NCBI GenBank assembly: GCA_963765495.1
Contig: CAVXWP010000009.1
Span: 736,001 to 800,000 of the forward strand
Direction of reading: 5' to 3'
Length of the DNA: 64,000 nucleotides
DNA from: Blastocatellia bacterium
Lineage (GTDB): Bacteria > Acidobacteriota > Blastocatellia > UBA7656
Shown piece by piece: positions 46,085-64,000 of this stretch. The notes beneath the pieces are model-generated. The model did no database searches. It saw only the letters and a list, made by a program, of their open reading frames with translations, and was not told the origin of the DNA. Each line of letters begins with the position of its first letter. Positions within the stretch are counted from its first letter, which is position 1. The position numbers and the translations under genes were made by a program.

Positions 46085-48377
46085 TTAACAGAAGTCGCTT
46101 ATCAGGACGGCATCTGTGGTCGAGGTGCCGCGTGAGCAGACAAACTGTTTTCCGTCCGGCGACCAGTCGAACGAAAAAATCAGGTCAGATTTAAAATCGG
46201 TCAACTGTTTAGACGGGCCGCCCTCTATCGGCTGAATCCAGATATTAGAGACTCCGTTGTGCGTCTCGACGTAGCTTATTGCGCGGCCATCCGGTGTCCA
46301 GCGAATCTCTCTGATCGGAGAACTGGCGACATCCAATATCTTTACAGGCTCTCCGCCCTCAAAGGGCAGAAGAGCTACATGGAATCGCGAGTTCGGTTGC
46401 TGAGACAGGTAATTGCAGGCTATAAGCTTTGCGTCGGGCGAGACGGCCGGTCTTCCCACCGTATCCTTGAAAGTCAGTTGTACGGGGTCGCCGCCTTCGA
46501 TAGGGACCCTCCACACGTGAACACCCTGCGGGGAATGCCGATAATAAACAACCCATTTGCCGTCAGGTGAACAATCGGGAATGCTCCCGCCATCGACTAA
46601 CTGTCTGGGGTCTGCGCCGTCGCTGTTCATTCTCCAGATGCTTGCCTGGTGCGAGCGATCAGAAGAGAAAACTATATAACGACCATCAGGAGAGACCGAG
46701 GGGAAACTATTGGAACCGGCATCCGAGGTCAGTTGTTTTTGCCCCGTCCCGTCCTCGCTCATAATCCATATATCCTGATTGCCGCTTGCCGCCGACTGGT
46801 AGACTATTCTGCCGTCAGGTGTCCAGCAAAGCCCCGCGTAATCGCTTGTTGCCGATGTGATCTTTTGAGCGCGGGTTTGATCTGCCTCAGGCACGATCCA
46901 GATATTTGCGGACTGCTCGCCCTGCACCGTTACAAGGGTTCGGGAATCTGCCGTAAGGCTCACGCCCATGTAACCGCTCAAGTCATTGGTAATCCTGTAG
47001 GCTTCGCCCTCCGGGTAAGATACGCGCCACAACTGCGGCTGACCGGCTTTCTCAATGGTCGATATAATCAGACCGCTCGCATCGGAAAGCCATGTAAAAG
47101 CTTCGACATAACCCCATTGCTTTTGAGAGAAAGCTTTCTCTGTGCCGTCATCTGCCCGCACTTCGATAAAACTCCTGTTGCCTCCGCCCACGCTGCCGCC
47201 TCTGGCAAAGCTGCCTTCAAGACAGACGATAATATTTCCGTCGGGCGACCACGCCGCTCCCGCCAGATACTCGGGCAGCGTACGCGAGGCAAGCGCACGC
47301 TCACCTGTTCCATCCGTGTTGATTACAACCAGACTTCTATTGAAATTCTCGTCCAGGCGAATGAGGGCGATCCGCTTCCCGTCAGGCGAAAAACTGATGT
47401 TGCTCAATGTGTCCTGTATGCTTATATCCGCGATCAGCTTTTTAGGCTCGCCTCCGAGGACCGTCATTTGATAGAGCGTGGCGCGCGGCTCGCCTTTCTC
47501 TCTCCCGAGGTAATAGATGTAGTTTCCATCACGTGAGAAGGCCAATCCCCGATAAGATCGGTCCCGGGCGGGCCGAAGTATCTGCACGTTGCTTGTCGTG
47601 GCCGCTTGCCTGAGCCAGAGACTCTGCCGTCCCGCATCGTCTATCACATAGATGATATATTTGCCGTCGGGCGAAATCGCCGCCCCCGCCAGATTGCCCG
47701 TCGATGTGAGCTTCGTCATGTTCATCGTCTGAAAAGGCGAGGACGTCTTATTTTCTTCGGGCTTTTGCCCGATGAATCGTGACAACGCAAAAGCGGTCCC
47801 CAAAACGACAACCGCGAGCAGGGTTAAGATGAGGGCCGCGCCTCTCTTATTGCGTTTGATCTCGCTGATGATCAGGTCAACCGAGGATATCGGGCGAGCC
47901 TCATCCGAAGCGAGAGTTTGAGCCGATACCTCGGCCGGGGTCTGAATCACGGTATCCCGGCCCGGGATAGGCGGCGCGGGCTTCCTGTTCGAATCGGCGC
48001 ACCCGCTGGTCATCGGTCATGAAGGTGGCGGGCAGCAATTTGATTGCAACGGGGCGGCCCAGCCTGCTGTCCTGCGCCAGATAGACTTCGCCCATCCCGC
48101 CTTTGCCGATCTTCGAGATTATCTTGTAAGGGCCTATGCGCTGGCCCGATTCCACCCCCGGCCCGGTTTCCGAAACCATCTCGGCCGCCGCTCCAAAGAT
48201 CAGCGATTCGAGGAAGCCGCCCGCTTCATCGTGGGCGGCCAGAAGCGATTCGACCTCTTTTCGAAGCGAGATGTCGTCTCCGCACATGCGGTCGAGCAGC
48301 ACGGCTCGCTCGTCAGATTTGTGCTCAAGCGCCGATTCCAGAATCTTATTGATCTGTTGCCATCGCTCGGGTGTCAT
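46085..48377 (-). pseudogene. Ser/Thr kinase-TM-TolB/PD40 beta-propeller protein with most of the kinase domain deleted
   Basis: [34 protein letters not shown], then out of frame to the linker, TM and repeated SPDG propeller blades. No HRD, DFG or APE motif. Confidence 0.88.
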
Positions 48378-48515
48378 AGAGATCGTGATTCGTGATTCGT
48401 GACCTGATAGAACAAACGCACCTAGCTTATGCATTTGCCCGATGCGAGTCAATTAGAAGGTTATCGAGAACAATCCCTCCTGTCCCACAGGACCAGCATT
48501 TGATTCTCAGGAGAT

Positions 48516-48589
48516 TCTTTGCGTGCTTCGCCTGCTCTGCGCCTCGGCGAGAAATAGGTGCTCGCCAGGGCGCAAAGCGCGCAAAGAGC
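48516..48589. repeat. CTTTGCG/CGCAAAG inverted repeat element
   Basis: TCTTTGCG..TGCGCCTCGGCGAG ... CTCGCCAGGGCGCA..CGCAAAGA. Confidence 0.65.
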
Positions 48590-48735
48590 TTCCTTAACAT
48601 AGATTATCCCCCGAAATAAGGCCCGACCTGCCGCTTTGAACCTGTTGCCGCCGGTTGACTACAATGCTAATTTCATGTTTCATGCTTGCTTGCAATTTGT
48701 AGAACAACATCTCTTGCTCAAGTAGAATACAGATA

Positions 48736-51108
48736 TTGTCTTCGATGACGAAAAACAACGGGCAGCAGCCCTCAAACGAATACTCTGCCCCCGCCGGGAC
48801 TTTCTGGCGGGTCGAGGGTAGTCTCCTGAATCTGAGCGCGGTGCGCCCGGTAGGCTTTTTCACCTGGAACGCTCAGAGCTTCCTCGAACGCTGGGCGCGG
48901 CGCTCAGGCGTGGCGCTGCTTGCGCTTGTGCGTCCCCTGCTCTACGCCACGAACCGCGTATTCGCCACCCGCGTGCTGCATTCGCTGCTGCGCGGAGTAA
49001 GCCAGGACCGCCTCGACCTTCTCGGCGAAGAGTATTTCAATTACATCCTCAGACCCCGGCTCAATCAGGAAAGCGTAGAAAAGCTGAGAGAATTGATGAA
49101 CGCGGGTGAAGACGTGATTCTGGTCTCGCAGGGGCTTGAGCACGTCATGCGCCCGCTTGCCGCATACCTCGGGGTCGGTCGCCTGGTAGCCAACCGGCTT
49201 GAGTTTCGCGACGGGCTCGCGACGGGCCGTTTGCTCGATCCGGTCATACGGCCTCGCGGAGGCTTTGCGCGTCTTGCCAGACGAAAGGTGGACGGGCGCA
49301 TCGCCCCGGAACGGATGGCCCGAGACCTCGGATTTTCCGGCGGGCCCGAGGCGCTCGGTCGCGCCATAATTCCTACGACCAGAAACCAGCATTTGCCCAC
49401 CCGCCCCATAGTGCTTTTCGACACCCGCAAACGGCTCAAAGAGTTTTCCGTAAAAGAGTCGCTTGCCGGGAAACACGTTTTGCTGATCGGGACCACCGGC
49501 TTTATCGGCAAGGTATGGCTGGCAAAAATTCTCAGCGAAGTCCCCGATATAGACAAAATATACCTGTTGATTCGCCGCCAGCGATCTACTCCGGCGCAAC
49601 GCCGTTTTGAAAAGATAGTGGAATCCTCTCCGGTCTTTGAGAGCTTCCACGAAAAGTACGGCGAAGATTTGCCGCGTTTCTTAGGCGAGCGAATAGAGGT
49701 GGTCGAAGGCGATGTGACGCTTGCGGGCCTCGGGCTTGAGGCGGAAACCAGAACGCGCCTGCTCGCCCGACTCGATCTTGTGGTCAACAGTTCCGGTCTC
49801 ACGGATTTCAATCCCGACCTGAGACTTGCGCTTTCAATCAACGTGGACGCGACGGTACACGTTCTCGACTTTATTCGCCAGAGCGACCACGCGGGCCTCC
49901 TCCACCTTTCTACCTGCTACGTAGTGGGGCAGAGAGACGGGCGGATACTGGAAGAGATTCGGCCCAACTACACCCCGGCGGGCGTTAAAGGTTTCGATGC
50001 CGAGCGAGAACGCGAGGCGCTTCACGCGCTGGTCAGAGAGATCGAAATCAGAAGCGAAAGCACCGAGGTCACCGAAGAGTTGCGCGCACAGGCGCGGTCA
50101 AAAGCGCCAAAAAATATCAGCGAAGAGGTGCTTGAGAACCACGTCCGAAAGTATCGCTCGCGCTGGGTGCGCGCTCGGTTGACCGAGACCGGGATGCGCA
50201 GGGCAAGAGAACTGGGCTGGCCCAATACCTATACCTTTACAAAGAGCCTGGCCGAATCGCTGCTGGCAAAACGCGGCATAGACCTGCCGGTTGCGATAGT
50301 GCGGCCCTCGATTGTAGAGACATCCACGCAAGACCCGTTCTGCGGCTGGAACGAAGGCGTAAACACATCAGCGCCGCTCTCTTATCTGCTCGGGACTTTC
50401 TTTCGCCAGCTTCCATCAAACGAGCGTAAGTGCCTTGATCTGATCCCCGTAGATATGGTCTCTCGCGGGATGTGTTTGATCTCGGCCGCGATAGTCAATC
50501 GGGTCCACAGCAGGGCATATCAACTGGCTACCTCGGCGGTAAATCCCTGCGACATGCGGCGCTGCATAGAGCTTACGGGGCTTGCCCATCGCAAGCACTA
50601 CCGCGCGCAGGAAGGCTTGGAGCACTGGCTGCGGCGCAGGTTCGATTCTATCCCCGTCTCCAAAGAGCGGTACGAGCGATTGTCTGCGCCGGGGCAGAAG
50701 GCCGTAGTTCATGCCATCCAGCGAATCAGCGCGCCGCTACCGCTCAAGCGTCCGCCCTTTGTGCGCACCGAACGCGACCTTGAACGCGTCGAGAAACTCA
50801 TAGAGCTTTACGAGCCGTTCATTCTCCATAACGAGCACGTCTTTGAAGCCGAGAATGTCGAGCTTTTATCGGAAGCCCTGCCCGAGCGGGAGCGCGAAGC
50901 CTTCAGCTATGACGCGCTTTCGATAGACTGGTGGGAATACTGGATCAATATCCACATCCCCGCGCTTAGGAAGTGGGCCTATCCCTTGATCGAGGGGCGG
51001 CCTCTTGAGTCTCGCCCGAGTCACGATTTTCACCTTCCGGCGCAACAGGCGCAACAGGCCGCTAAGGGAAACAGCAATCGCCTGAGCGATGAGCCTGTAG
51101 GGACTTAA
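48736..51108 (+). CDS. Degenerate HAD-IB domain fused to a fatty acyl-CoA/ACP reductase (male-sterility type)
   Basis: N-terminal HAD-like region ([25 protein letters not shown]). [40 protein letters not shown]. Confidence 0.88.
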
Positions 51109-51113
51109 TCAGT

Positions 51114-52250
51114 ATGGCAATATTTCTAACAGGCTCGACGGGGTATCTCGGCGCTCACCTCGCGGCAGGCTTATTAGAGGGGCACGCCGAAAAGCTGAAT
51201 CTTCTGGTTCGCGCTAAGAGCGAGCGCGAGGCGGAAGAGAGATTATGGCGCGCCCTGCAACTGCACATGGATTTCCCGCGCTTTTATGACTTCCTGAAGA
51301 CCAGGATCAACATCTTTTGCGGCGATCTGACCGACCCGCGTTTTGGGCTTGAAGCAGATGATTATCTTCGCATGGCGAAGACCACGGATTCGATTATTCA
51401 TTGCGCCGCTTCGCTAAATCGCAAGAGCGAAAAAAGCTGTCTGAATGTAAACCTGAGGGGTACGCTCGAAGTAGTCAAATTCGCAGCCGCCGCCCGCGAC
51501 GATCACGGGCTTCGCCGCATCAGCCACGTGAGCACCGTGGCCGTGGCCGGGCATCGCAGCAATGAAGTGGTCAGGGAAGACGAGGCGATAGACTGGAACC
51601 GTTCCGATTATGACCCCTACGCCCGCACAAAGAAGTTTTGCGAGCACATGGTGGCGGAACTCCTGCCCGATGTGCCTCATACCGTATTTCGCCCGAGCAT
51701 AATACTTGGCGACAGCCGCTGGCCCGAAACCACTCAATTCGATATGGTGCGCTCATTTGTCTTTCTGGCCGGACTTCCCGTCCTGCCCTTTCGCGCCGAA
51801 GACCGCATAGACATAGTGCCAGTGGATTTCGTCGCCTCTTCAATCGTCGCGCTCCATCAAAAAGAGAAGCCCGATCACGATATTTATCATCTGTCGTCGG
51901 GGACAAGTTCTCAGACTTTTCGCGAGCTTACCGATGCGCTCGCGAGGGTCCGCGACAAGCGCGGGCCGGTCTTTTTGCCGAGCCTTGAGCGCCCCTTTAC
52001 GAGCGCGGTCAATTATCTGGCAAACAGACGCGGCACGACTCTCGGTTATGGAGCCTCGCTGCTGAAGGTCTTTATTCCTTATCTTGTGTGGAACACCGTA
52101 TTCGACAACACGCGAGCAGTTACGGAGACAGGACAGTCGCCCGCGCTGTTTTCCGACTACAGCTATGGCCTGTTGAAGTTCGCCAAAGAAGGCAATTTCA
52201 CATACGATTACAAGCAATGGCCGAGTGCCGTAGAGGAGTATGCCCGATGA
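51114..52250 (+). CDS. Extended SDR / thioester-reductase-like oxidoreductase
   Basis: [28 protein letters not shown] motifs. Confidence 0.88.
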
Positions 52251-53659
52251 GCATGGATTTGATTTTAGAAGGCTGGGTGAGCGGTCTGATCGAAGTGACG
52301 CGACTTGGCTGGATGCTCGGAGCAGGGAGGAGGTGGACGCCAGGCGAAAAACTGAAGCTGTTGTTTACGGGCTACAACGGCACGCGAAACACGGGCGCGG
52401 ATGTGCGCGTGGAAGAGATGCTCCGCCAGATTCGCCACATACTTGGAGACGAGAATGCCCGGTTGAGCGTACTCAGTCAAAACTTCGACATGACCAGAGG
52501 CTATTTCGACAACGTCAAACAGGTCAAACTGCCCGACATCTTTCCGCCTTTCCTTTACCGCGAAGTGCGCAAGTATGACGGCGTGGTAGCGTGCGAAGGC
52601 TCTATGTTCAAGAGCAAGTTTGCAAACGCGCTGACCACGATGATGATAGGCTCGCTTGCCATCGCTTCATCGCAAAACAAGTTGAGCCTCGGCTACGGCG
52701 CGGAGGCCGGACACATGGACCCTACGCTTGCGAAGATGTGCAAGCGATACTGCAAGGATTCGCTCGTCATCACTCGCAACGAAGAATCGGCCACGGTGCT
52801 TGGCAAGCTCGGCGTATCAACAGAGCTTGGGACCGACACGGCCTGGACCTTTGAGCCGCACGGAAACGAATACGGGGAAATGGCGCTTAAGAAAGTCGGA
52901 TGGGACGGCAGCACGCCTGTTCTGATCGTCTGCCCCATCAATCCGTTCTGGTGGCCCGTGAAGGCATCGGTTGCCAAACGCGCCGCGCATCTTATGACCG
53001 GCGCTTTCAAGGAGAGCCACTACCGTTCGGTCTATTTTCACAATGCCGGGCCGAATGTGGATCGGGCCTACGAGCGTTATTTGAAGGCCATTTCGAACGC
53101 GGTTGACAGGTTTCGCAAAGAGAATCGGGTCTTCCCGGTTCTGGTAGGTATGGAGGCGCTCGATATGAAAGCCTGCAAGAGAGTCTCTGACCACCTCGGG
53201 GGCGTGCCCGTTTTCACATCTTATGAATATGACATGTACCAGCTTGTCAGCATACTTCGCTGCGCTCATATGCTGGTCTCTTCGCGGTATCACGGCATAG
53301 TGACGGCGATGCCCGCGCTTGTGGCCTCGGCCGGTGTGACTATGGACGAGCGCATACGTAATCTGATGCACGAGCGCGGGCACGAAGATTTACTGCTGAC
53401 CGTAGACGACCCGGACCTCGAAGAGAAGCTTCTGGTAGTGATGGGCAAATTGCAAAAAGAGCACGAATCGATACGCGACGGCATAGGGCGAACGGTTGCA
53501 AAAAACCTAAAGGTGATGGCTCGCATGGGAGTCTATTTCGAAGAACACGTGCAGAAGCGTTATCCCGAATTCCCAATACGCACAGGCATCCTGAGCTGGG
53601 AAGATTATCTGCCCCCGTTCAGCCCGAGCTTAAAGAAACTGGTCGAAAATTATGGGTAG
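52247..53659 (+). CDS. Polysaccharide pyruvyl transferase family (GT-B-like) protein
   Basis: [29 protein letters not shown] motifs. ATGA overlap with the upstream gene. Confidence 0.75.
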
Positions 53660-53688
53660 TGGTCAGTGATCAATGACCACCGCTTGTT

Positions 53689-55335
53689 ATGAACTTTATC
53701 GAGAACATCTTTAATCGCCTCAGACAGACGCCCGAGAGAATCGTGTTGCAGGAGGCGCGGGACGGGCAGATAGTGGCGGCGGAGAGCAAAGAGTTGCTGG
53801 CGCTTATCCGCGCCGCCCGCGCTTTCCTGAGGGCGGCGGGTGTCGGAAAAGGCGACCGCTGCGGCCTGCTTGCCCATAACAGCATCCGATGGGCGGCGAT
53901 GGATCTGGCCTTGATGGCCGAAGGCATTATAGTAGTCCCGCTCTACGCACGACAGGCCCCGGCAGAGCTCGCCGCGATGATGAAAGATTGCAAGACCACG
54001 CTTGTTTGCTCGGGCGATGAGAGTCTTCGAGACGGCATACGGGAAGCCTGGCCCGACGCCCCCCCTGTAAAATTATTCGATGAGATTTTCGCTTATGATT
54101 CGGGCGATCTTACAGACGACCCGCTGCCGCTTGCCAATGCTGACCCGGTGACGATCATCTATACATCGGGCACATCCGGCGAGCCAAAGGGCGTAGTCCT
54201 GACCGCAGGCAACGTTACTTTTATGCTGCCCTGCACCAATGCGCGGCTCGATCTGCTTATGGGCAGACGGGCGGAAGCCGACCGCGTCTTTCATTATCTG
54301 CCTTTCTGCTTCGCCGGATCGTGGATACTGCTGCTCACAAGCCTCACGCGCAATAGTGTGCTCACGATCTCAACCGACCTCAACAAGCTTGTAGATGAGA
54401 TGAAACTGGCCGCGCCCAATTATTTCCTGAATGTGCCCGCGCTGCTTGAGCGCGTTCGCGCGGGTATAGAGAGCCAGTTGAAAGAGCGAGGCGGCGCGGG
54501 GCAGTTCTTATTTGAAAAAGGGAAGACGGCGTGGTTTCGCCATCAGGCCGAGCAATCGAGCCGTATCGACGGAGTGTGGCTGATGCTTGCCGGGAAGCTT
54601 GTCTTCCCGACCATAAAGGAAAGGCTCGGCCCGAATCTGAAGGCGCTGATCTGCGGGTCGGCCCCTCTCAGCCGAGAGACGCAACTCTTTTTCAGTATGA
54701 TAGACATCCCTGTTTTGCAGGTCTACGGGTTGACCGAAACTTCCGCTATCTGCACTATGGATCATCCGCATCAGGTGAGGCCCGGTCGCGTGGGGCCGGC
54801 CATACCCGGCATAGAGATGAAACTCGGCAAGGGCGATGAGATACTTGTGCGGGGGCCGCATATCTTTCCGGGCTACTGGAATCGCCCCGAAGAGACCGGA
54901 CGGGTATTGAATAATGGATGGTTCCACACGGGCGATCAGGGCGAGGTGGATCAATCGGGCAACTGGAACATCATCGGGCGCATAAAGAATCTGATTATCT
55001 TAAGCTCGGGTCATAACATAGCGCCCGAACCAATCGAAGAGATGATCCTGAAAGAGGTTCCGGCAGCCGGGCAGGTGTTGCTTGTTGGAAACGGGCGCAG
55101 CTATGTCTCGGCCATCGTGACCGGAGAGGTGAGCGACCGCGAAGTGGAAACGGCGCTTGACAGGGTCAATCCGCAGTTGCCCCACTACAAACGCATCCGC
55201 GCGTTTTACATATCGAAAGACCCTTTCACTATAGAGAACGGGTTGCTTACGGCCAACGGGAAATTGAAGCGCGATCTTATAACTGGGCATTACGGCGCTC
55301 AGATCGAAGCTCTCTATCGCAGCAAGAAGGCTTGA
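53689..55335 (+). CDS. AMP-dependent long-chain acyl-CoA/ACP synthetase 1
   Basis: [32 protein letters not shown] motifs. Confidence 0.92.
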
Positions 55336-55342
55336 GGAACTT

Positions 55343-55567
55343 ATGATTATCAGTTTCGGCGATATTCGCCATCTTATACCGGCATACATATTCAACGAAT
55401 ACGGCCAGCTTACGGGCAACTACGTCTACGGCGACCAGATAGTGTGTGAAGTCGATCAGGGGCGCATAAAAATCTGGCTGAATCAGGACGCCTTTGACCA
55501 GAAAGACCCCGAAAGGCTGATATGCGATTATGATGAAACGACTCTGCGCAGTCAGAGCGCGGGCTAA
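55343..55567 (+). CDS. Small hypothetical protein (74 aa)
   Basis: GAGG RBS; fills the operon gap with 7-nt and 3-nt spacings. Confidence 0.7.
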   Translation: MIISFGDIRHLIPAYIFNEYGQLTGNYVYGDQIVCEVDQGRIKIWLNQDAFDQKDPERLICDYDETTLRSQSAG

Positions 55568-55570
55568 ATT

Positions 55571-56374
55571 ATGAACAGCTATAACGGCAAGACACTATCC
55601 TGGGAGGTGACAGACGGGTGCGTAGAGCTTAAGCTCCACCGACAGCCCTGCAACGAGATAGGCTCGATCACGCTTGAAGAGCTTGAGCGATTTGCAGAGG
55701 CGCTCGGCTCGCTTGAAAGCTACGCGCACGCGCTCATAATTCACAGCGCGGAAAAACCGGGCTTTTGCGCGGGCGCGGATTTGCGCGAGCTTTACTACCG
55801 CTCACAGGAGACGGCCGAGCCTGACCGCAATGCGGGCGTGCGCGATTTTCTGGAACGCATTCACCGCGTGATGAACCGGATTGACTCGACTCCGTTGACC
55901 ACAATAGCAGCGGTTCACGGAGTCACCTTTGGCGGAGGCTTCGAGCTTGCCCTTGTCTGCGATCTGATCATCGCAGACAAGATGGCGCGCTTCTGTTTTC
56001 CCGAACTCAGGCTTGGGCTCATTCCCGGTTTTGGCGGCATCCCGCGATTAAAGCGCGACCTCGGAAACGGCGTGGTGCGCGACCTGCTGCTGACGGGTCG
56101 AAGTATAAACGCGGCCAAAGCTCAGGCCGTGGGCCTTGTCAGCCAGCTTGCCGCCGAAGGAGAGGCGCTGCGGGTTGCGCGCGCGACCGCCGCGCAGATC
56201 AAGAAGTTTGATCGAGCCACAAGCGCCACGGCCAAGCATTTTATAAAGCCGATTCCCTACGAAGAGTTGCGACAGGAAATAGACATCTTTTGCGATCTGT
56301 TCACGCGCCCGGCAGTCGAGGCAGGGCTGCGAAAGTTTGTAGAAAGCACAGACGCGCTGCCCTACCTGCCGTGA
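55571..56374 (+). CDS. Enoyl-CoA hydratase/isomerase
   Basis: FCAGADL, GGGFELAL, FPELRLGLIPGFGG motifs. Confidence 0.92.
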   Translation: MNSYNGKTLSWEVTDGCVELKLHRQPCNEIGSITLEELERFAEALGSLESYAHALIIHSAEKPGFCAGADLRELYYRSQETAEPDRNAGVRDFLERIHRVMNRIDSTPLTTIAAVHGVTFGGGFELALVCDLIIADKMARFCFPELRLGLIPGFGGIPRLKRDLGNGVVRDLLLTGRSINAAKAQAVGLVSQLAAEGEALRVARATAAQIKKFDRATSATAKHFIKPIPYEELRQEIDIFCDLFTRPAVEAGLRKFVESTDALPYLP

Positions 56375-56392
56375 TTGTGAGCAGCAGAGTTT

Positions 56393-56505
56393 TGTAGGGG
56401 CAGCCCGGATGAGTACATTTATTGTGGCTGCCCGAATCCGTCGTAAGCGCGATGACAGTCATCGCCCTTCGGGCGATCCGGGCGAGGACAAGCCTCGCCC
56501 CTACA
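56393..56505. repeat. GTAG-type REP doublet (REPIN-like)
   Basis: TGTAGGGGC... ending GGGCGAGG-ACAAG-CCTCGCCCCTACA, with internal hairpins. Confidence 0.7.
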
Positions 56506-56519
56506 ATCTGGAGATAAAC

Positions 56520-56762
56520 ATGCGAACACTTGAACAAACCACTGATGAGATACTTACGCTCGCGGCGACTCATTTCAAAGTCTCGCGCGAAGAGCTTGCG
56601 CCCGAAGACGATTTTTTCAAGAAACTCGGAATAGACTCTCTGCAAGCGCTCGAACTGCTCACCCGGCTTGAGAATCATTTCAACGTAGAGTTGCCCGATT
56701 ACGAGATTCAGGGAGTGACCGACTTTCACACTCTGGCCGATAGAATCCAATCGAGACTGTAG
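56520..56762 (+). CDS. Acyl carrier protein
   Basis: LGIDSL phosphopantetheine motif, GGAG RBS, 80 aa acidic protein. Confidence 0.92.
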
Positions 56763-56766
56763 ACCG

Positions 56767-58479
56767 ATGCTCGACCTCAACATATACCAGTCCCTCGGCG
56801 CTGCGCTCAAAGACGCGCTTGAGCAATGGCCCTACGAGACCTGCCTGATCGAAGCCGACCGCGACCGCGAGAACTGCCGCCTGACTTACCGTCAGTTCAA
56901 AGAAGCCGCTCTCCCGCTTGCCGCATACCTTCAGCAGTCGGGGTTCAAGGCAGGTTCTCGGGCAGCCATCATAATGACAAATCAGTCGAAGTGGCTCATC
57001 AGCGCCTACGCCATATTTTATGCGGGCGGCGTTCTTGTGCCGCTCGATTACAAGCTGAGCGCCCGCGAACACCTGCAATTACTCGCGCATTCCGGGGCCG
57101 AAGTCCTCGTGGTCGAATACTATCTCTGGCGCGCGATAATCGCCGAAGAAGGGTTCAAAGACCTGAAGGCCCGGACCATCCTCGTCACCGAGGCACCGGC
57201 CAGGGCCGATCTTAAAGGGGCCGGGCGATGGGAAGAAGCCAGAGGCGCGAGCGAGCCGCAGTTTGTCGAGCGAGAGCGCAAAGACATGGCCTGCATAGTC
57301 TATTCGTCGGGCACAGGCGGCAGGCCGAAGGGCTGCGTGCTCACGCACGAAAACTATCTCGAACAATGCATGGCGCTCACATCGCTCTACCCGTTCTGGC
57401 CGGGCGTTCGTTACCTGAGCATCCTGCCTACGAATCACGCGATAGATTTCATGGTCGGTTTTATAGGCCCGTTCACCTGCGGCGCAGCCGTGGTTCATCT
57501 GCGCACGCTCCGCCCGGAGTATGTGCGCGAGGCGTTTCCGCGTTACAAGATCACCTACATGAGCCTCGTGCCTATGGTGCTGAAGAACCTCGAAAAGGGA
57601 TTGCGCGCCCGCTTTGATGAACTGCCCGCGACAAAGCGATTCGTGTTCAACCGGCTTCTGGGCATCAATCGCGGGCTTACGCGGAAGCGGCCAAATCTGA
57701 ATCTGAGCAGGCGGCTTCTCAAACAGGTGCACGAAGCATTCGGCGGAGAGTTGAAGTCGCTTTTCGTGGGCGGCGCTTTTATTGATCCGGGGACGTTGCA
57801 GTTTTTCTATGACCTCGGCATTCAGGTGTCGAACGGCTACGGACTGACGGAAGCGGGCACTGCCGTTACCTTAAACGATATGAATCCGTTTCGAGCAAAT
57901 ACGGTTGGGAAGCCTCTGCCGGGCATGGAGGTGAAGATAATAAATCCCGACGCGGAAGGCATAGGACAGGTGGCGGTTCGCAGCAAGACCGTGATGTCTC
58001 ATTATCTGGATGACCCGGAGATGACCGCCGAAACTATTGTGGACGGCTGGCTGATGACGGGCGATCTCGGACGCATTGACGACGCGGGCCACCTGCAATT
58101 ATTCGGGCGGGCAAAGAACATGATCGTCACCGAGGGAGGGAAAAACGTCTACCCCGAAGACATCGAATCGGCTTTTGAAGACGTGCCTGTAAAAGAGCTT
58201 TGCGTCTTTGCGGCAAACTATATCTGGCCCGAGCACACGATGACGGGCGAGCAACTGGTAATAGTGCTTGGACTTGAGCCGGGGCAGAAATTCACCGAAG
58301 AGTTGCGCGCAGTATTGATCGAGCGCAATCGCCGACTGCTCGATTACAAACGGATAAGCGGCTACGTTTTATGGACAGACGAGTTTCCGCGCACCGCCTC
58401 GCTCAAGATCAAACGCGGCGTTCTGGCGGAAGAATTGCGGAGCCGTCTCGACCGCCAAACAGCGCTGGTAGAACTGTGA
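56767..58479 (+). CDS. AMP-dependent acyl-CoA/ACP synthetase 2
   Basis: [47 protein letters not shown] motifs. Confidence 0.92.
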
Positions 58480-59375
58480 CGACACCGTACCTTGCAATAG
58501 TAAATCCGGCTGCCGGGTTTGGTCGCGCGGGCAAACTGGTAGGCCCCGCGCTCGACCGCCTGCGCGCCGAAGGCGTTGAGATTGAGGTGGTTGAAACCCG
58601 TTACGCGGGCCACGCTACCGAGATCACGAGAGAGGCTTACCGCGAAGGGCGCACGCGTTTTCTGGCCGTCGGGGGGGACGGCACCTCTTTTGAAATCGTA
58701 AACGGATTGTTCCCCGAAGCCGAAGGCAAAGAGCCTCCTGTGCTTGGCTTTTTGCCGCTCGGTACGGGCAATTCCTTCCTCAGAGATTTTTCCGAAGACG
58801 GACTCGCGCATGCCCGCCGCGCGCTCGTAGAGAATCGCTCGCGCCCGTGCGATGTCGTGCGGTTGACTCATAAAGAGGGCGAGATCTATTTCATCAATAT
58901 CCTGAGCCTCGGTTTCGTAGCCGATGTCTGTATGCTCGCCAATCGCCGTTTCAAACGCATGGGAGAGATGGGTTACATGCTCGCCGTAGTGCTTTGCCTT
59001 GCGCGATTCAGGCAGGGCGAATTTACCATGCGGGTGGATGGCGCAACCGAGCCCGACACTCATCGCACGGCGTTGCTGATATTCAACAACAGTAAATACA
59101 CGGGCGGCAAGATGATGCTTGCTCCAAACGCCGACACGAGCGATGGGTTGATCGACATAGTTCGATGGTCGTCGGGGCGCTTCGATTTTATATCGAATTT
59201 TTCCAAAGTGTATGACGGTTCGCACGTAAACCACCCGCTCGTATGGCAGGGCAGGGCAGGGCGCATTGAATTTGATTTCGACAGCCCGGTTGATGTGATG
59301 GTGGACGGCGAGGTGCTGACCCTGCAATTCAAATCGCTTGAAGTTCTGCCTTCGGCCCTGACGGTGATGGTATGA
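58476..59375 (+). CDS. Diacylglycerol/sphingosine kinase family lipid kinase
   Basis: IVNPAAG, VGGDGT, LPLGTGN, VDGE motifs. GTGA overlap. Confidence 0.9.
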
Positions 59376-60124
59376 AGAAAGTCTATCTGATCATACGCAG
59401 CATAATTGTATGGCTTGTGAGCGGTCTGCATTTTTTCACCGTTTGCAGCTTTCTGGTCCTGCTTGGCGCATTCATTGATCCGCGCAAAAACGACCGCCCG
59501 CAGCGATGGTTCTTTCGCAATATACTCAGGCTTGCAGGCGTGGGGTTCGAAGTAAAATACGCGCCCGGATTCGACCGCGAGCGCACGAGTTTTTTCGTCT
59601 GCAACCACATAAACATTTTCGACGCCTTTGTCATCTATTCCGCCATCCCTCAATTCGTGCGCGGGCTTGAGCTCGAATCCCATTTCAAAATCCCGGCTTA
59701 CGGCTGGATGATGAAACGTTTCGGCAACATCCCTGTGCCCGCCGAAAGCACGGCATCGGCGCTGAAAGAGATGATGAAACGCACGCGCCGGGCGCTCGAC
59801 GCGGGTGTGAGCCTGATTGTCTTTGCCGAAGGCACGCGCACCGTGACGGGCCGCGTAGGGCCTTTCAAAGAAGGCATCTTTCGCATGGCGATTCAATTCG
59901 GCTACCCGGTAGCGCCGATGAGCATTGTCGGTTCCTATGAATTCAATCGCAAAGGCGACTGGATGCTCTATCCTTCGAAGATAACCGTCTACATGCACGA
60001 CACAATCGAGACAAAGGGACTAAGCAAAAATGATGTAGAGGCGTTAAGGGATCGCGTGCATAAGATCGTTTCCGCGCCGGTTGATGAGCACTTCGGCATA
60101 GGCGCGAAATCGGAAGCGGTGTGA
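59372..60124 (+). CDS. 1-acyl-sn-glycerol-3-phosphate acyltransferase family (PlsC-like)
   Basis: NHINIFD (HX4D), FAEGTR, FKEG motifs. Confidence 0.9.
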
Positions 60125-60125
60125 T

Positions 60126-60203
60126 TTAGACAGGATTAACAAGATTAGATTGGATTGACAGGATTCTCTTTTAATCTTTGGAAATCCTGTTAATCCTGTC
60201 TAA
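60126..60203. repeat. (CAGGATTAA)n inverted repeat element
   Basis: TTAGACAGGATTAACA ... TGTTAATCCTGTCTAA. A half copy occurs at 11350-11378. Confidence 0.8.
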
Positions 60204-60257
60204 GTATGGCCGTGCCTGTTCAGGTCGCTGGCTGTTTACTGAATCGACACATATTGA

Positions 60258-62276
60258 TCAACGAATTCCCGTTCGGAAGTCGCCCTGCATCACGGTTTGC
60301 CCGAGCAGGTCCTGTATCTCGATGTGGCGAATGGAGTCTATCTGCCCGGGCAAGGGCGGGAGCGGCTGTCCCACCCCGTCATTTGCAAACAGGACCCGCG
60401 CATATCCGAATCGAGCGGCTACCAGCCCGATTGTCACGCCGTCGGCCACTACGCGATAAGTCTCGCCCGAATTAAGGCCCTCGACCTCTATGCCTAAACG
60501 CTCGCGGTCGGATTCAATGCTTATCCGCGCCCGGCCTCCGGCATCCGCGAGCCCGAGCGTCGACGCGAGCCGCGCTTCTTTCTCAAGCGATCTGATAACA
60601 GGCTCCGGCCCCGGGCCATCTGTAGAGAAATCGCCTTGAAGGATGATTCTGCCCAGCGCGTCTCGCAACTCGACACGTTTTATAGTAGTCAGAGGATCGA
60701 GCGGCGCGGGCAGCGGAGCCTCTCCCGGAGCGGTCGAAAATTTGAATTTGAGACCGCCCAGACTGGCCGATAAATCCGCGCCTACTTCCCTGTCGTCTAC
60801 AAACAGATCATACGTAGAGCGGACGTTTAGGCCGATGGCTTCGAGGACGAATTCCTGCGTGCTTCCGGTGACGGTTATAGAGGCGCGGCCTCGCCCGCTG
60901 CCAACCGACGGGCCGCGCATAAGCTCAAGTTCGATGTGATTGAACGAAGGGCGGTCCTGAATAAGCTGGGCCTGGAGCGCGGCAAGCGGGTCGATACGCC
61001 CTTTGCCAAGCTTTCCGGCATATTCGGGATTGATGTCGTCAAGGTTTACGGCAGTGCCTGTTATGAGCCGGTCTACATCGGGAAATCTTGAATCCGCCGA
61101 GAGCAGGAGCGCGGCTTCTGCCGAAGCGAACGGCGCGGCGAAAGAGGTCCCGCTCCACCTCGCATAATTGCTCGGATCATCAGCGGGATCGGTGCCCGGA
61201 TACGCGCTTATGAGCTTGGTGCCGGGAGCGCACACGTCTACGTGTTTGCCGAAGTTTGAAAATTCGGATTTCCTGCCGTCCAGATTGATCGCGGCCACGG
61301 CTATGACATCGGGTGAGCTTGAAGGGTACATAGCGGGTTTTGCCGTATTGTCGTTCCCGACGGCGGCTACCATAACTATTCCGCGCTCCTTTGCATAATT
61401 TATCGCGTCTTCGAGCAGGGGCGATACTTCGGGCGAGCCGAGGCTGAGGTTGATCACATTCGCGCCGTGGTCCACCGCATATTTGATGGCGGCGGCTACC
61501 GTAAAAGCATCGCTCATGCCTTCGGGCGGGAAGGCGCGGACGGGGAGGATGCGGCAATCGGGCGCGAGCATATTGATGAGCCCGCCGATAAATGTGCCGT
61601 GCCCGGCGACGGTCGTTTCCGGGTCGTCGGCCTCTTCCGAGGGGTCGTTGTCGTTGTCTACGAAATCCCACCCGCGAGCGTCGTCTACGAGCCCGTCGCC
61701 GTCGTTATCAATCCCGTCTCCTTCGATGTCGGCATTGCGCCGTTCATCTTTCCAGATTTGACCGGCGATCTGGGGGTGAGCGAAGTTTATTCCCGTATCA
61801 ATAAGCGCGACTACTATATTTGCGCCTCGTGAACGAATGCTCACCTGTTCAAGCGCGAGCAGATCGAACAGCGCCTGTTGCGAGTTGTAATCAAGCAGAC
61901 TGAGGCCCGGAGAGGCGACGCCGTCCGGGAAGCTGAAGGTTGATCGCCCAAAGAGGCTCGGGCTTGTGATAACGGGGTTGAGCGAGGCGCTCAAAACGTC
62001 GCGGTCTTTGCTGAGTTTCTTGCGCCATTTCTTCTCCTTCTTCGCTTTTGGGGTCAGGAGTCTATAGAAATTGGTCCCATAAAGCCGCTCGATGGTCGTG
62101 GTGCCAAAACGCGCGTTTATTGCTTCAATCGAAGCGCCCGCCTTTATTTCGACCACGACTTCGCCCCTGCGGACATCCTTGTTGATTTCATCCGGCTGAC
62201 CTTCGGTTTGAGCCATCAGGGGCGTGGCCCCACCCAAAAGCAATATCAAAACAAGAACCGCATTTATCAGCTTCAT
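60258..62276 (-). CDS. Secreted S8 subtilase with a duplicated ~110-aa C-terminal domain
   Basis: LIDTG, GHGT, GTSFAAP triad. DNDGDGLVDD calcium loop. Two repeats ending LGxxxxQGDF. Confidence 0.9.
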   Translation of the reverse strand: MKLINAVLVLILLLGGATPLMAQTEGQPDEINKDVRRGEVVVEIKAGASIEAINARFGTTTIERLYGTNFYRLLTPKAKKEKKWRKKLSKDRDVLSASLNPVITSPSLFGRSTFSFPDGVASPGLSLLDYNSQQALFDLLALEQVSIRSRGANIVVALIDTGINFAHPQIAGQIWKDERRNADIEGDGIDNDGDGLVDDARGWDFVDNDNDPSEEADDPETTVAGHGTFIGGLINMLAPDCRILPVRAFPPEGMSDAFTVAAAIKYAVDHGANVINLSLGSPEVSPLLEDAINYAKERGIVMVAAVGNDNTAKPAMYPSSSPDVIAVAAINLDGRKSEFSNFGKHVDVCAPGTKLISAYPGTDPADDPSNYARWSGTSFAAPFASAEAALLLSADSRFPDVDRLITGTAVNLDDINPEYAGKLGKGRIDPLAALQAQLIQDRPSFNHIELELMRGPSVGSGRGRASITVTGSTQEFVLEAIGLNVRSTYDLFVDDREVGADLSASLGGLKFKFSTAPGEAPLPAPLDPLTTIKRVELRDALGRIILQGDFSTDGPGPEPVIRSLEKEARLASTLGLADAGGRARISIESDRERLGIEVEGLNSGETYRVVADGVTIGLVAARFGYARVLFANDGVGQPLPPLPGQIDSIRHIEIQDLLGQTVMQGDFRTGIR

Positions 62277-62287
62277 AATAACCTCGC

Positions 62288-62404
62288 AGCGATACGTGAT
62301 ACGTGATACGCGATACGTGATGCGTGATATGTGAAATTAGCACTGACCTGCAAAACAGTCGTTAACCTTAAAATTACGAATCACGTATCACGCATCGCGC
62401 ATCA
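62288..62404. repeat. (CGTGATA)n ... (TCACGxA)n inverted heptamer element
   Basis: About 6 + 4 heptamers around a ~40-nt spacer. Confidence 0.85.
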
Positions 62405-64000
62405 ATTTGGGTTGCCCATCAAGACAAACGGAGCCCAGTAGTAAGGATGCCCATACATGTCTTTGAGGGCAAGTTGCGCCGCCCTGAGCGCCGCTCGTTT
62501 CGTAGCGCCTTCGCGCAAATGCCCGTACATCTCTTGCATAAATTCGGCCGTAGCCGTGTCGTTTGCCGCCCACAGGCTTGCGACAAGCGAAGGCGCTCCC
62601 GCATAGAGGAAGCCCCGCACGAGCCCGTGAAGCTCATCACCCGGAAAGACCATGTTTACTCCCGTGTGGCAGGCCGAAAGCGTGACCATCTCGGCCTTTA
62701 ATTCAAGCTCTAACAGACTGTAAAAATTCAGAGGCGAATCGGCGAGCTTCAGAAATGAAAACATGGGATTGTCCCGCCTGAAATATCCGTGCGAAGCCAG
62801 ATGAAGAAAACGCGCTCGCGGCGCGTGCTTCATGAGGTTGTCGCGTGTGGCATCGTCTCCGACAAGAGTCACAGCGCCGGGGAAGATTTTTCTGAGGGCC
62901 GAGACTTCAGCCTCTATGCTGGGCGTTTCCGGGTGCGCTACGCCAAGAGCCACCATATCGCATTTGAGATTCGAGATTTGAGATTCGAGATTTGAGCTTG
63001 CCCGAGCATCCGCGCTGATCTGATTGCCCCGGTCGCGGCAGAGCTTTAGCACGGTTGCGCTTGGCGCGTATGAAATTTCAAAGCGGTCAATCAGAAAACC
63101 GCGCCGGTCGAGCAGCGCGTGAAACGGCACATAATGCAGCGCCCCGTGCGGGATGATAATCAAGCGGTCGCCTTCTATGTAGGGTTCGAGCGGCGCAAAG
63201 ACCGCCTCAGATAACCGTATCAGATGCTGGTTGGTTGCGTGGTTGAGATGTTCGAAATGCTCGTCGGCAAACTCCGACCCGTAATTGAATTTCTCAAGCT
63301 GAAACCTGAGCCCGGCAAGCATCTTTTCCACCTCGCCCTTTGAGGCTACCTCACGCACTACCCTGATGCAGTCGCGGCCTACGATAAAGGCTGAGACTAC
63401 ATTTCCCGTTGTGAAGTATTCGATAGCCGTCTCGTCGGCTTCAAGCGAGCTTCGCAAATCCGATACGGAAGCCGCCTGCATGCGCTGCATCTCGGCAAAC
63501 TGAGAGCCGTCGGCCTCCATGCGGCGGAATAGCTCGGCTATACGGCGTTCGCAGTGCTCGACCTGGCGAGCATATCGCCCCGCAACGTGTGCCCTGCGCT
63601 GATTGCCCTTTTCATCTTCGAGTCTCGCCTGAGAGCTATACCAGTTCAAGTTTTCAATCAACGTGAGCAATCGCGTCCGTGCCTCGTCTTCGACAGGTCG
63701 GCGAGCGGTGGATTGCGGGTCGCGCAAGTATCTGGCGAGCAGGTCGGCGAGCGCCCGAGATTTCGACGATTCGACCAGACGGAATGCCTCTTCGACAAGC
63801 GGTTCCGTGCTTTGATCGAGGCACGCGCCGATAGCGTCTTCATACACCCCGATCTTATCGCGCAGGAAAGTAGCCTTGAATTCATCAGCGGCGATTCCGC
63901 CTCGCATCTGCTCTACGGTTCGAACCGCGATTTGAAATCTTTCGAGAGCCGCACGTATCTGCCCCCGGTCCCTCTCTATCTTTCCGATCAGATGGTGACA
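62402..64000 (-). CDS. CHAT (caspase-like) domain protein, probably TPR-CHAT; 5' part lies outside the window
   Basis: ESSKSRAL, IPHGALHYVPF, LHLASHG, VTLSAC, SLW, HPYYWAPF motifs. Confidence 0.9.
   Translation of the reverse strand, partial: CHHLIGKIERDRGQIRAALERFQIAVRTVEQMRGGIAADEFKATFLRDKIGVYEDAIGACLDQSTEPLVEEAFRLVESSKSRALADLLARYLRDPQSTARRPVEDEARTRLLTLIENLNWYSSQARLEDEKGNQRRAHVAGRYARQVEHCERRIAELFRRMEADGSQFAEMQRMQAASVSDLRSSLEADETAIEYFTTGNVVSAFIVGRDCIRVVREVASKGEVEKMLAGLRFQLEKFNYGSEFADEHFEHLNHATNQHLIRLSEAVFAPLEPYIEGDRLIIIPHGALHYVPFHALLDRRGFLIDRFEISYAPSATVLKLCRDRGNQISADARASSNLESQISNLKCDMVALGVAHPETPSIEAEVSALRKIFPGAVTLVGDDATRDNLMKHAPRARFLHLASHGYFRRDNPMFSFLKLADSPLNFYSLLELELKAEMVTLSACHTGVNMVFPGDELHGLVRGFLYAGAPSLVASLWAANDTATAEFMQEMYGHLREGATKRAALRAAQLALKDMYGHPYYWAPFVLMGNPN

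Follow-up and report, generated by a model that had tools for sequence, protein, structure and literature searches.

A run of co-oriented genes for lipid enzymes lies at positions 48736-60124 of the + strand of a 64,000-nucleotide (nt) stretch from the genome of a Blastocatellia bacterium (contig CAVXWP010000009.1, positions 736,001 to 800,000; hereafter the window, to which all positions refer), and raises the question of which lipid these genes would make, and by which route. An original prediction, made from the sequence, had described ten such genes as a split and expanded version of the elb ether-lipid pathway of Myxococcus xanthus. Our results indicate that nine of them constitute a conserved operon, which is related to elb and yet appears to have a different enzyme core. 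Judged from domain content and gene order, the proposition that the product is a fatty-alcohol-derived lipid, probably an ether lipid, stands at about even chances, and the most likely product would be an alkyl ether glycerolipid. The ten open reading frames (ORFs) were all present at the positions given in the prediction, and with their likely starts they are as follows.

g1, 48745..51108, + strand: degenerate HAD-IB-like domain fused to an alcohol-forming-type fatty acyl reductase (FAR; NAD_binding_4 and Sterile domains).
g2, 51114..52250, + strand: stand-alone thioester reductase of the carrier-protein type (extended short-chain dehydrogenase/reductase, SDR).
g3, 52247..53659, + strand: divergent PS_pyruv_trans-family GT-B enzyme of 470 amino acids (aa).
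g4, 53689..55335, + strand: acyl-AMP/CoA ligase 1, ACSL/FadD11-like, with an AMP-binding_C_3 domain.
74-aa ORF, 55343..55567, + strand: in the 235-nt spacer between g4 and g6; probably no gene.
g6, 55571..56374, + strand: crotonase-fold enoyl-thioester hydratase (ECH) with both catalytic glutamates.
g7, 56520..56762, + strand: dedicated acyl carrier protein (ACP) with a DSL serine motif.
g8, 56767..58479, + strand: acyl-AMP ligase 2, resembling the adenylation domain of ElbD.
g9, 58476..59375, + strand: lipid kinase of the YegS/DgkB family.
g10, 59372..60124, + strand: PlsC-type acyltransferase with NHxxxxD and FAEGTR motifs; last gene, lineage-variable.

Pfam families were matched by g1 (HAD, E-value 9.8e-12; NAD_binding_4, 1.9e-51; Sterile, 1.8e-10), g2 (NAD_binding_4, 1.3e-47), g3 (PS_pyruv_trans, 8.4e-8, 32.9 bits against a cut-off of 25.3), g4 (AMP-binding, 2e-54), g6 (ECH_1, 6.6e-39), g7 (PP-binding, 2.9e-13), g8 (AMP-binding, 8.9e-71), g9 (DAGK_cat, 7.4e-25, and YegS_C, 4.2e-29) and g10 (Acyltransferase, 3.4e-20). 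The sole operon protein above an NCBIfam cut-off is g9 (TIGR00147, 141.2 against 118.65 bits); because all the others fall under every NCBIfam equivalog cut-off, they have no recognised orthologues among named enzymes.

The junctions look like those of one transcription and translation unit. Stop and start codons overlap between g2 and g3 (ATGA, likely start ATG 52247, longest ORF from 52088), between g8 and g9 (GTGA, likely start GTG 58476, longest ORF from 58371) and between g9 and g10 (ATGA, ATG 59372), and spacings of 5 and 4 nt separate g1 from g2 and g7 from g8. The longest ORF of g1 starts at TTG 48736, and homologue alignment together with the junction sequence favours the first ATG at 48745; for g7, whose longest ORF begins at 56409, the likely start is ATG 56520 with a GGAG 9 nt upstream, and its homologues align only from residue 31-43 onward. 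The GC content of the operon equals that of its flanks, which carry unrelated genes on the opposite strand. Of the sequencing runs listed as containing this stretch, one is soil-metagenome DNA and none is RNA.

Conservation of the gene order was assessed in the best 80 of at least 583 species-level genome stretches, drawn with the g3 orthologue alignment and hence closest to the query rather than random, with presence counted among the loci that extend far enough. In 79 of the 80 loci, which span Blastocatellia and Terriglobia, the genes run colinearly as g1-g2-g3-g4-g6-g7-g8-g9(-g10), so the concern raised with the original prediction, that the order might not recur in other genomes, does not hold. 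Both g1 and g2 are present in 62/62 loci, g4 and g6 in 59/59, g7 in 56/59, g8 in 54/59 and g9 in 48/55; g10 was found in 16/55, and in Acidobacteriaceae-type loci the operon stops at the kinase g9. The titles in this set name Blastocatellia, Terriglobia, Acidobacteriaceae, Sulfotelmatobacter, Acidiferrales and unclassified Acidobacteriota metagenome-assembled genomes (MAGs), and three bins bear the labels Clostridia, Heliomicrobium and Verrucomicrobiia. More standard operons came from a metagenome scan, which also turned up a clade at about 50% identity, with a GC content of 66-70%, that keeps the same order through g9 and g10; judging by the protein atlas and by one NCBI name (Sandaracinaceae), this clade may belong to Myxococcota. 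Among the regions compared in relatives, four loci hold the full order g1-g2-g3-g4-g6-g7-g8-g9-g10, and four are truncated by contig ends, three of them inside the shared order (L011, L021 and L022) and the other (L012) after g1-g4 and an ECH of 33% identity.

The relation to elb is one of shared parts. The M. xanthus cluster is described in excerpts of PMC9131029 as encoding the NAD-dependent epimerase/dehydratases ElbA and ElbE, the HAD-like ElbB, ElbC with no function assigned there, and ElbD, a single FAR-acyl-CoA synthetase-ACP-acyltransferase polypeptide; its disruption lowers both alkyl and vinyl ether lipids (PMC9131029). A canonical elb cluster is also found in a relative of the same class (L017), with a HAD gene, a Lar_N protein at the place of ElbC, a four-domain ElbD of 1,476 aa and an epimerase, and with a YegS kinase and a further acyltransferase nearby. 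When the window proteins were compared by blastp with the elb proteins of L017, the g1 FAR matched that of ElbD at 35.6% identity over 553 columns (315 bits), the g1 HAD part matched ElbB (31.9%, 87 bits), g8 and g4 the adenylation domain of ElbD (32.8%, 264 bits, and 27.2%, 182 bits), g10 its acyltransferase domain (25.6%, 49 bits) and g9 the kinase near elb (30.6%, 112 bits). Conversely, g3, g6 and g7 gave no match to these proteins, g7 at a threshold of 1e-2, so that the ACP likeness is one of family only. No counterpart of ElbC (Lar_N) was found among the operon proteins, nor one of ElbE, which g2 matches over 34 residues at E 0.002.

Thus, compared with elb (M. xanthus elbA-E, MIBiG BGC0000871, and its subdivision-4 homologues), the operon has in common a FAR, an adenylating ligase, an ACP, a PlsC-type acyltransferase and a HAD part, the FAR, ligase and HAD parts being 32-36% identical to those of acidobacterial elb, as well as a YegS-type kinase nearby. 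It differs in that the four activities of the single ElbD polypeptide are spread over g1, g8, g7 and g10, in that the HAD part is fused to the FAR and has lost its nucleophile, and in that g3, ligase 1, the crotonase and the thioester reductase are added and are conserved as well as the shared parts. Because ElbC and ElbE are absent, g2, g3, g4 and g6 are in place, and the HAD nucleophile is lost, the operon is, as far as homology tells, a distinct pathway core sharing parts with elb, and not simply a split ElbD. The idea of a split, expanded Elb pathway therefore survives in the homology of the FAR, ligase 2, acyltransferase and HAD parts and fails at ElbC, ElbE and the core; likewise, three of the four ElbD activities that had been proposed to occur as separate proteins are matched by blastp, the ACP being alike at family level. 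Split ElbD and elb-like clusters with adjacent diacylglycerol kinase, acyltransferase and β-ketoacyl-ACP synthase III (KAS III) genes have been described in sponge symbionts (bioRxiv 10.64898/2026.06.23.733905), and the available portion of that preprint contains no mention of a pyruvyl-transferase-like gene or of a HAD-FAR fusion. At the ElbC position of L017 (7848-9446), and also in L018 and L019, the gene carries a lactate-racemase N-terminal (Lar_N) domain, and the elb cluster of L017 is interspersed with a 23S-rRNA-IVP gene and an ankyrin-repeat gene.

The two cluster types were also found apart from each other. With g1 as query, matches were obtained in 18 of 41 related genomes: 14, the window's own included, hold a full g1-type protein of 63-77% identity, and 4 hold the ElbD type, whose FAR domain is 37% identical to g1 within a frame of 1,442-1,504 aa and whose HAD gene is separate, 2-5 kb from the FAR frame. 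No genome has both types and 23 have neither; this query detected no ElbD in the window's own genome. In the same vein, g3 was found in 0/16 genomes of the ElbD-bearing family.

Sequence motifs refine what g1 and g2 may do. The reductase part of g1 carries GxxGxxG ('GTTGFIGK') and YxxxK ('YTFTK') and matches the fatty acyl-CoA reductase 7eoz in the Protein Data Bank (PDB; 5.1e-49); these motifs, together with NAD_binding_4 and Sterile, are what we take to be the defining features of the alcohol-forming FAR family. The HAD-FAR fusion had been predicted correctly, but its HAD-like domain is degenerate. An arginine occupies the site of the nucleophilic aspartate in motif I, which reads [FY]WRVEG[SG]L in 60/60 aligned orthologues against FYDLEGTL in the ElbB of 3/3 acidobacterial clusters, and in the same 60-orthologue alignment the motif III lysine and the motif IV acidic pair are missing; a looser pattern search recovered motif I in 90 of 101 orthologues, the other 11 being unmatched by the pattern. 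Since the motif I aspartate is replaced and the motif III and IV residues are gone, the domain is homologous to ElbB but probably not a working phosphatase, and the strict retention of the arginine speaks for some non-catalytic role, perhaps in ligand binding or docking. As for g2, its prediction as an extended SDR agrees with its NAD_binding_4 match and its own GxxGxxG and YxxxK motifs, and can be narrowed: TIGR01746 (thioester reductase) is matched at 4.6e-42 and 144.6 bits, under the curated cut-off of 213.35, and the nearest solved structures in the PDB are the reductase (R) domains of MxaA (1.2e-23), of a polyketide synthase (PKS) and of carboxylic acid reductases (CAR). By these likenesses g2 is of the thioester-reductase type and not of the ElbE epimerase type.

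The remaining enzymes also keep their catalytic motifs. Those of g6 are GGGFEL and FPEL, with GGG[FL]EL in 110/112 orthologues and the PE glutamate in 111/112, and its two glutamates presumably correspond to Glu144 and Glu164 of rat ECH. The HxxxxD and FAEGTR motifs of g10 and the DSL serine motif of g7 are likewise present.

Of all the operon's genes, g3 is the most distinctive and the best conserved, with a mean column identity of 74% among orthologues (n=8); it is preceded by g2 in 62/62 loci and followed by g4 in 59/59. PS_pyruv_trans is its sole Pfam match at E<=0.01, with no glycosyltransferase family among the matches, and a whole-genome scan found no other PF04230 match in the genome (33.7 bits). 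Its homologues score 26-58 bits for PF04230, except for one fusion protein (P0271, 21.4 bits, under the cut-off). Across 54 sequences no variation occurs at R177 or H349, and conservation at R347 and R369 is at least 90%. In CsaB of Paenibacillus alvei, docking predicts that R148, R306, H308 and K328 bind phosphoenolpyruvate (PEP), and substitutions at R148, H308 and K328 altered or abolished activity, R306 not being among the mutated residues in the excerpts of that study (PMC10435577). The g3 residues are spaced 170/2/20 against 158/2/20 in CsaB, a match by spacing and not by residue alignment. Thus g3 shares with CsaB and with Pvg1p of fission yeast a Pfam match above the cut-off, the GT-B fold and, as compared by spacing, a conserved arginine, an RxH and a basic residue 20 positions on. 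It differs in being about 9% identical to Pvg1p structurally, in its distance from the CsaB equivalog score, in having no sequence match in the PDB, and in lying in a lipid operon without glycan genes, with natural fusions to FAR, ACP or ligase.

An AlphaFold (AF2) model of g3, built from 54 diverse sequences, has a predicted local distance difference test score of 95.8 and a predicted template modelling score of 0.93, and displays a GT-B fold with an N-terminal helix. In Foldseek, UDP-GlcNAc 2-epimerases lead together with glycosyltransferases; in a wide VIA search, PimA came top (Z 21.3), MGD1 reached Z 18.6, and the yeast pyruvyltransferase Pvg1p ranked 28 (Z 16.6, 255 residues aligned, root-mean-square deviation 3.5). 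Because PimA ranks above Pvg1p and epimerases lead in Foldseek, the chemistry of this GT-B protein is not set by fold alone, and the case for PEP use rests on the Pfam match and the R...RxH...R pattern. A search of PDB sequences with g3 profiles gave nothing at E<=1, and chance rows at E<=10. The gene contexts of g3 homologues outside the operon, read in L113, L116-L119 and for a 40%-identity homologue in G088, were uninformative. The window flanks hold no glycan genes, and the neighbours of g3 are lipid enzymes. Clustering the family in sequence data leaves at least 7,820 groups at 90% identity, out of 8,000 candidates scored, and 826 at 50% identity, 240 of the latter at E<=1e-30, and the sole public name on it is 'polysaccharide pyruvyl transferase family protein'.

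Natural fusions also link operon parts to one another. FAR and g3 are joined in P0272 (923 aa, 5 member sequences), and the C-terminal domain of FAR and g3 in P0127; P0271 (1,348 aa, 4 contigs) combines a fatty acyl-AMP ligase (FAAL)-type ligase with a PilZ insert, an ACP and a g3 part 53% identical to g3. Other fusions are those of g3 and a ligase in P0171 (967 aa), whose ligase is nearer to g4 (29%, 242 bits) than to g8 (23%, 122 bits), of ECH and ligase 2 in P0281 (846 aa, 43-44% identity), and of ECH with parts of ligase 1 or ACP in several high-identity singletons. Because their parts are non-adjacent in the window operon, the FAR-g3 and FAAL-ACP-g3 forms are the more telling, and they would connect g3 with that end of the pathway where fatty-acyl-ACP and FAR act. 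As a metagenome query, P0271 returned further standard operons and not loci of its own fusion type. The PilZ domain of P0271 sits inside the adenylation domain, and this protein could be a form of the pathway responsive to cyclic di-GMP.

These genes can be ordered in a route, the argument for the order being economy, with one job for each conserved gene. Ligase 2 (g8) would load a fatty acid onto the ACP (g7), and the FAR domain of g1 would reduce the acyl-ACP to an aldehyde or alcohol. It would then be g3 that joins the alcohol and PEP to give a carboxylate-bearing, enolpyruvyl ether, whose carboxylate ligase 1 (g4) would turn into a thioester; the crotonase (g6) would hydrate the acrylate-type double bond, as a crotonase does with methacrylyl-CoA, and the thioester reductase (g2) would reduce the thioester to an O-alkylglycerol, namely 2-O-alkylglycerol. 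Finally, the lipid kinase (g9) would phosphorylate the alkylglycerol, and g10, or a housekeeping PlsC-type enzyme where g10 is absent, would acylate it to a phosphatidic-acid analogue. The middle part, from g3 to g2, implies that the glycerol backbone is built from PEP on the fatty alcohol itself, which, on gene content and motifs, we consider possible though doubtful. Two links speak for it. Within the operon, an alpha,beta-unsaturated carboxylate could come from the enolpyruvyl group alone, because a hydratase is present without an acyl dehydrogenase or ketoreductase; and the two ligases and two reductases are explained, because there would be two carboxylates, the fatty acid and the PEP-derived acid. 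There are also precedents for single steps: crotonases hydrate a 2-substituted acryloyl thioester, methacrylyl-CoA; carrier-bound thioesters are reduced by CAR and MxaA, the nearest structures to g2; and an alkylglycerol kinase followed by an acyltransferase is a known salvage route to ether phospholipids (PMC3520006). A C-C aldol addition of PEP to the fatty aldehyde, of the DAHP/KDO8P-synthase type, was considered and rejected, that chemistry belonging to another fold; a bacterial sphingolipid cluster was likewise rejected, since neither operon nor flanks hold a gene of the serine-palmitoyltransferase type.

Several observations weigh against this route and against the reading of the operon as a whole. 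The g3 Pfam score is modest, and CsaB (TIGR03609) is matched with 64 bits against an equivalog cut-off of 213.1. By fold, the g3 model is no nearer to the sole solved pyruvyltransferase than to GT-B glycosyltransferases and epimerases. The known PF04230 members make sugar ketals, and we know of none that makes an enol ether. The proposed chemistry predicts a 2-O-alkylglycerol, and the ethers of subdivision 4 are reportedly 1-O-alkyl; 2-O-monoalkyl glycerols do exist in bacteria, namely in sulfate reducers (PMC5552659). Most fusions join neighbouring genes, and several are singletons with partial coverage that may be frameshift or gene-call artefacts. The operon is patchy in its distribution, with g3 in 12 of 301 evenly drawn Acidobacteriota genomes (E<=1e-30), and two loci (L009 and L015) keep g1-g4 only, followed by unrelated genes. 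Furthermore, most g3 holders listed are Terriglobia MAGs, and ether lipids are rare in cultured Terriglobia according to excerpts of PMC13159169.

The same parts could instead serve an elb-type ether lipid made by other glycerol-phosphate chemistry, with g3 decorating the product, for example by capping the free diol of an alkyl- or acylglycerol with a pyruvate ketal, and with ligase 1, ECH and the reductase processing the pyruvyl carboxylate or a second acyl chain. This would agree with the known PS_pyruv_trans enzymes, which form cyclic ketals on diols (PMC10435577), with the homology of the shared parts to ElbD and ElbB, and with an ICMT/PEMT-type methyltransferase between g4 and g6 in L132 and L154, which hints at a lipid carboxylate. 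However, it leaves the hydratase and the second reductase with no necessary role and, ElbC and ElbE being absent, the ether-forming step without an enzyme, and the conservation of g3 and its fusion to FAR in some lineages fit a core step better than a decoration; we regard it as quite unlikely.

Another fatty-alcohol or diol lipid, with no glycerol ether, would be a ketal-capped 1,3-diol, a wax-type ester or a signalling lipid; in the first case, a 3-hydroxyacyl thioester made by ECH would be reduced by g2 and g1 to a 1,3-diol and capped with a pyruvate ketal. Such a diol would mimic the O4/O6 pair used by ketal-pyruvyltransferases, the two reductases and the patchy, accessory distribution (12/301 genomes) fit, and FabH-type KAS III occurs between ECH and ACP in L013, L014, L016 and L035. 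We rate this outcome as unlikely but arguable, for the operon has no dehydrogenase or ketoreductase to make an enoyl or 3-hydroxy substrate from the loaded fatty acid, the pair of kinase and PlsC-type enzyme points to a glycerolipid-like acceptor, and it is elb genes to which FAR, ligase 2 and the HAD-like domain are most closely related within these genomes. Highly improbable, in our judgement, is that g3 is an ordinary GT-B glycosyltransferase or polysaccharide pyruvyltransferase and the product a glycolipid or lipid-anchored glycan. The top structural matches are indeed lipid-acting or nucleotide-sugar GT-B enzymes (PimA and MGD1), and the public annotation reads polysaccharide pyruvyl transferase; but g3 matches no glycosyltransferase family at E<=0.01, its RxH-type PEP pattern is conserved, and neither the operon, the window flanks nor the loci read contain a sugar-activating, glycan-polymerising or export gene.

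With the terminal reductase modules of CAR and of PKS and nonribosomal peptide synthetases (adenylation-thiolation-reductase, as in MxaA), the operon shares a ligase, a carrier and a thioester-reductase-type SDR, which by analogy would act together to turn an activated carboxylate into an aldehyde or alcohol; it differs in that these are separate proteins, with two ligases per ACP and a second, FAR-type reductase. The order of a lipid kinase and then a PlsC-type acyltransferase recalls the eukaryotic alkylglycerol salvage (EC 2.7.1.93 and alkylglycerophosphate acyltransferase; PMC3520006), whose animal kinase has no assigned sequence in the excerpts of that source, whereas g9 belongs to the bacterial YegS/DgkB family, with a predicted substrate. 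Alternative bacterial routes to alkyl or alkenyl ethers are those of MXAN_1676-1674 (AGPS, FAR-acyltransferase and epimerase) and of PlsA/Ger (PMC9131029, PMC13159169), which start from dihydroxyacetone phosphate or from an ester lipid; by Pfam, the operon has no gene of AGPS or PlsA/Ger type.

Several related loci carry additional genes within the operon. In some Blastocatellia a FabH-type KAS III of 334 aa, absent from the window operon, lies between hydratase and ACP (L013:8550-9554, L014:10236-11240, L016:10188-11186 and L035:14797-15801). Two metagenome loci have a membrane methyltransferase of the ICMT/PEMT family between ligase 1 and hydratase (L132:12938-13699 and L154:13133-13855), which may be a hint of methylation of a lipid carboxylate or headgroup. 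Other insertions are a DUF4199 gene between g1 and g2 (L014:4294-4800), a DUF4126 gene between ECH and ACP (L010:8876-9466), an ODP/metallo-beta-lactamase-fold protein between g4 and g6 (L153:4940-5665) and a MazF-like toxin after g3 (L009:7397-7750). The sole clear rearrangement among the long loci printed from the metagenome scan is on the contig L166 (15497-19300), in which the g6-g9 half is inverted relative to g1-g4.

The remaining ORF of the original prediction fared differently from the nine with Pfam families. The 74-aa ORF matches no family in Pfam or NCBIfam; a tblastn search at E<1 in 14 loci gave one 17-residue chance match, a relative was found in 0/55 loci with sufficient downstream DNA, and there was none among the 174 related loci altogether (14 + 80 + 80). 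In relatives, g4 and g6 adjoin directly, or the gap is filled with other things. Since it has no family and no relative in related loci, this ORF is probably no gene, and probably a chance ORF in the 235-nt spacer.

Regarding regulatory signals and surroundings, a promoter and terminator scan of the region found 7 sigma-70-like sites against 5.9 +/- 2.3 in shuffles, so there is no excess, and Rfam gave no match in 48000-60500. One of the hexamer pairs lies upstream of the operon.

Sigma-70-like hexamer pair, 48636..48665, + strand: TTGAAC-18-TACAAT, about 80 nt 5' of g1; a weak candidate only.

The upstream flank (46085-48452, - strand) holds a seemingly broken Ser/Thr protein kinase/PD40 beta-propeller gene. 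The frame with the kinase N-terminus (GxGxxG, VAIK) ends after about 183 aa, a different frame carries the transmembrane and PD40 part, and the kinase catalytic core is largely missing. The downstream flank (60258-63907, - strand) encodes two proteins unrelated to the operon, a CHAT-domain protein and an S8 subtilase whose prodomain is of the fervidolysin type.

No description of this gene set was found in the literature searched, which was mostly open-access, with the supplements of the papers on elb and on branched glycerol dialkyl glycerol tetraethers outside the search; this agrees with the original prediction, which had recognised no described cluster. The first comparison of elb clusters in Acidobacteria is said to be that of Sinninghe Damsté et al. 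in their 2014 and 2018 papers. The operon appears to be an uncharacterised, elb-like variant, and could be categorically new if the PEP route holds. The elb genes are linked genetically to ether lipids in Myxococcus, where excerpts of PMC9131029 and PMC13159169 assign no enzyme to the ether-forming step, and by homology only in Acidobacteria (PMC9131029, PMC13159169).

The operon bears on how aerobic soil bacteria make ether lipids and on how aerobes come by the sn-2 ether needed for branched tetraethers, which are widely used climate proxies. It may show a new route; it is abundant in data from soil and conserved in two classes of Acidobacteriota, and its few, soluble-looking enzymes lend themselves to expression and assay. 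If the PEP route is true, it would provide an oxygen-tolerant, glycerol-phosphate-independent ether bond at the middle carbon of glycerol, hence might account for the so far unexplained ether at sn-2 in bacterial di- and tetraether lipids, and would hint at a related 2-oxy-C3 acid as the substrate of the LarA-like ElbC in canonical elb. Should the product turn out to be no ether, a PEP-type transferase central to a lipid pathway would be a new use of the PF04230 family.

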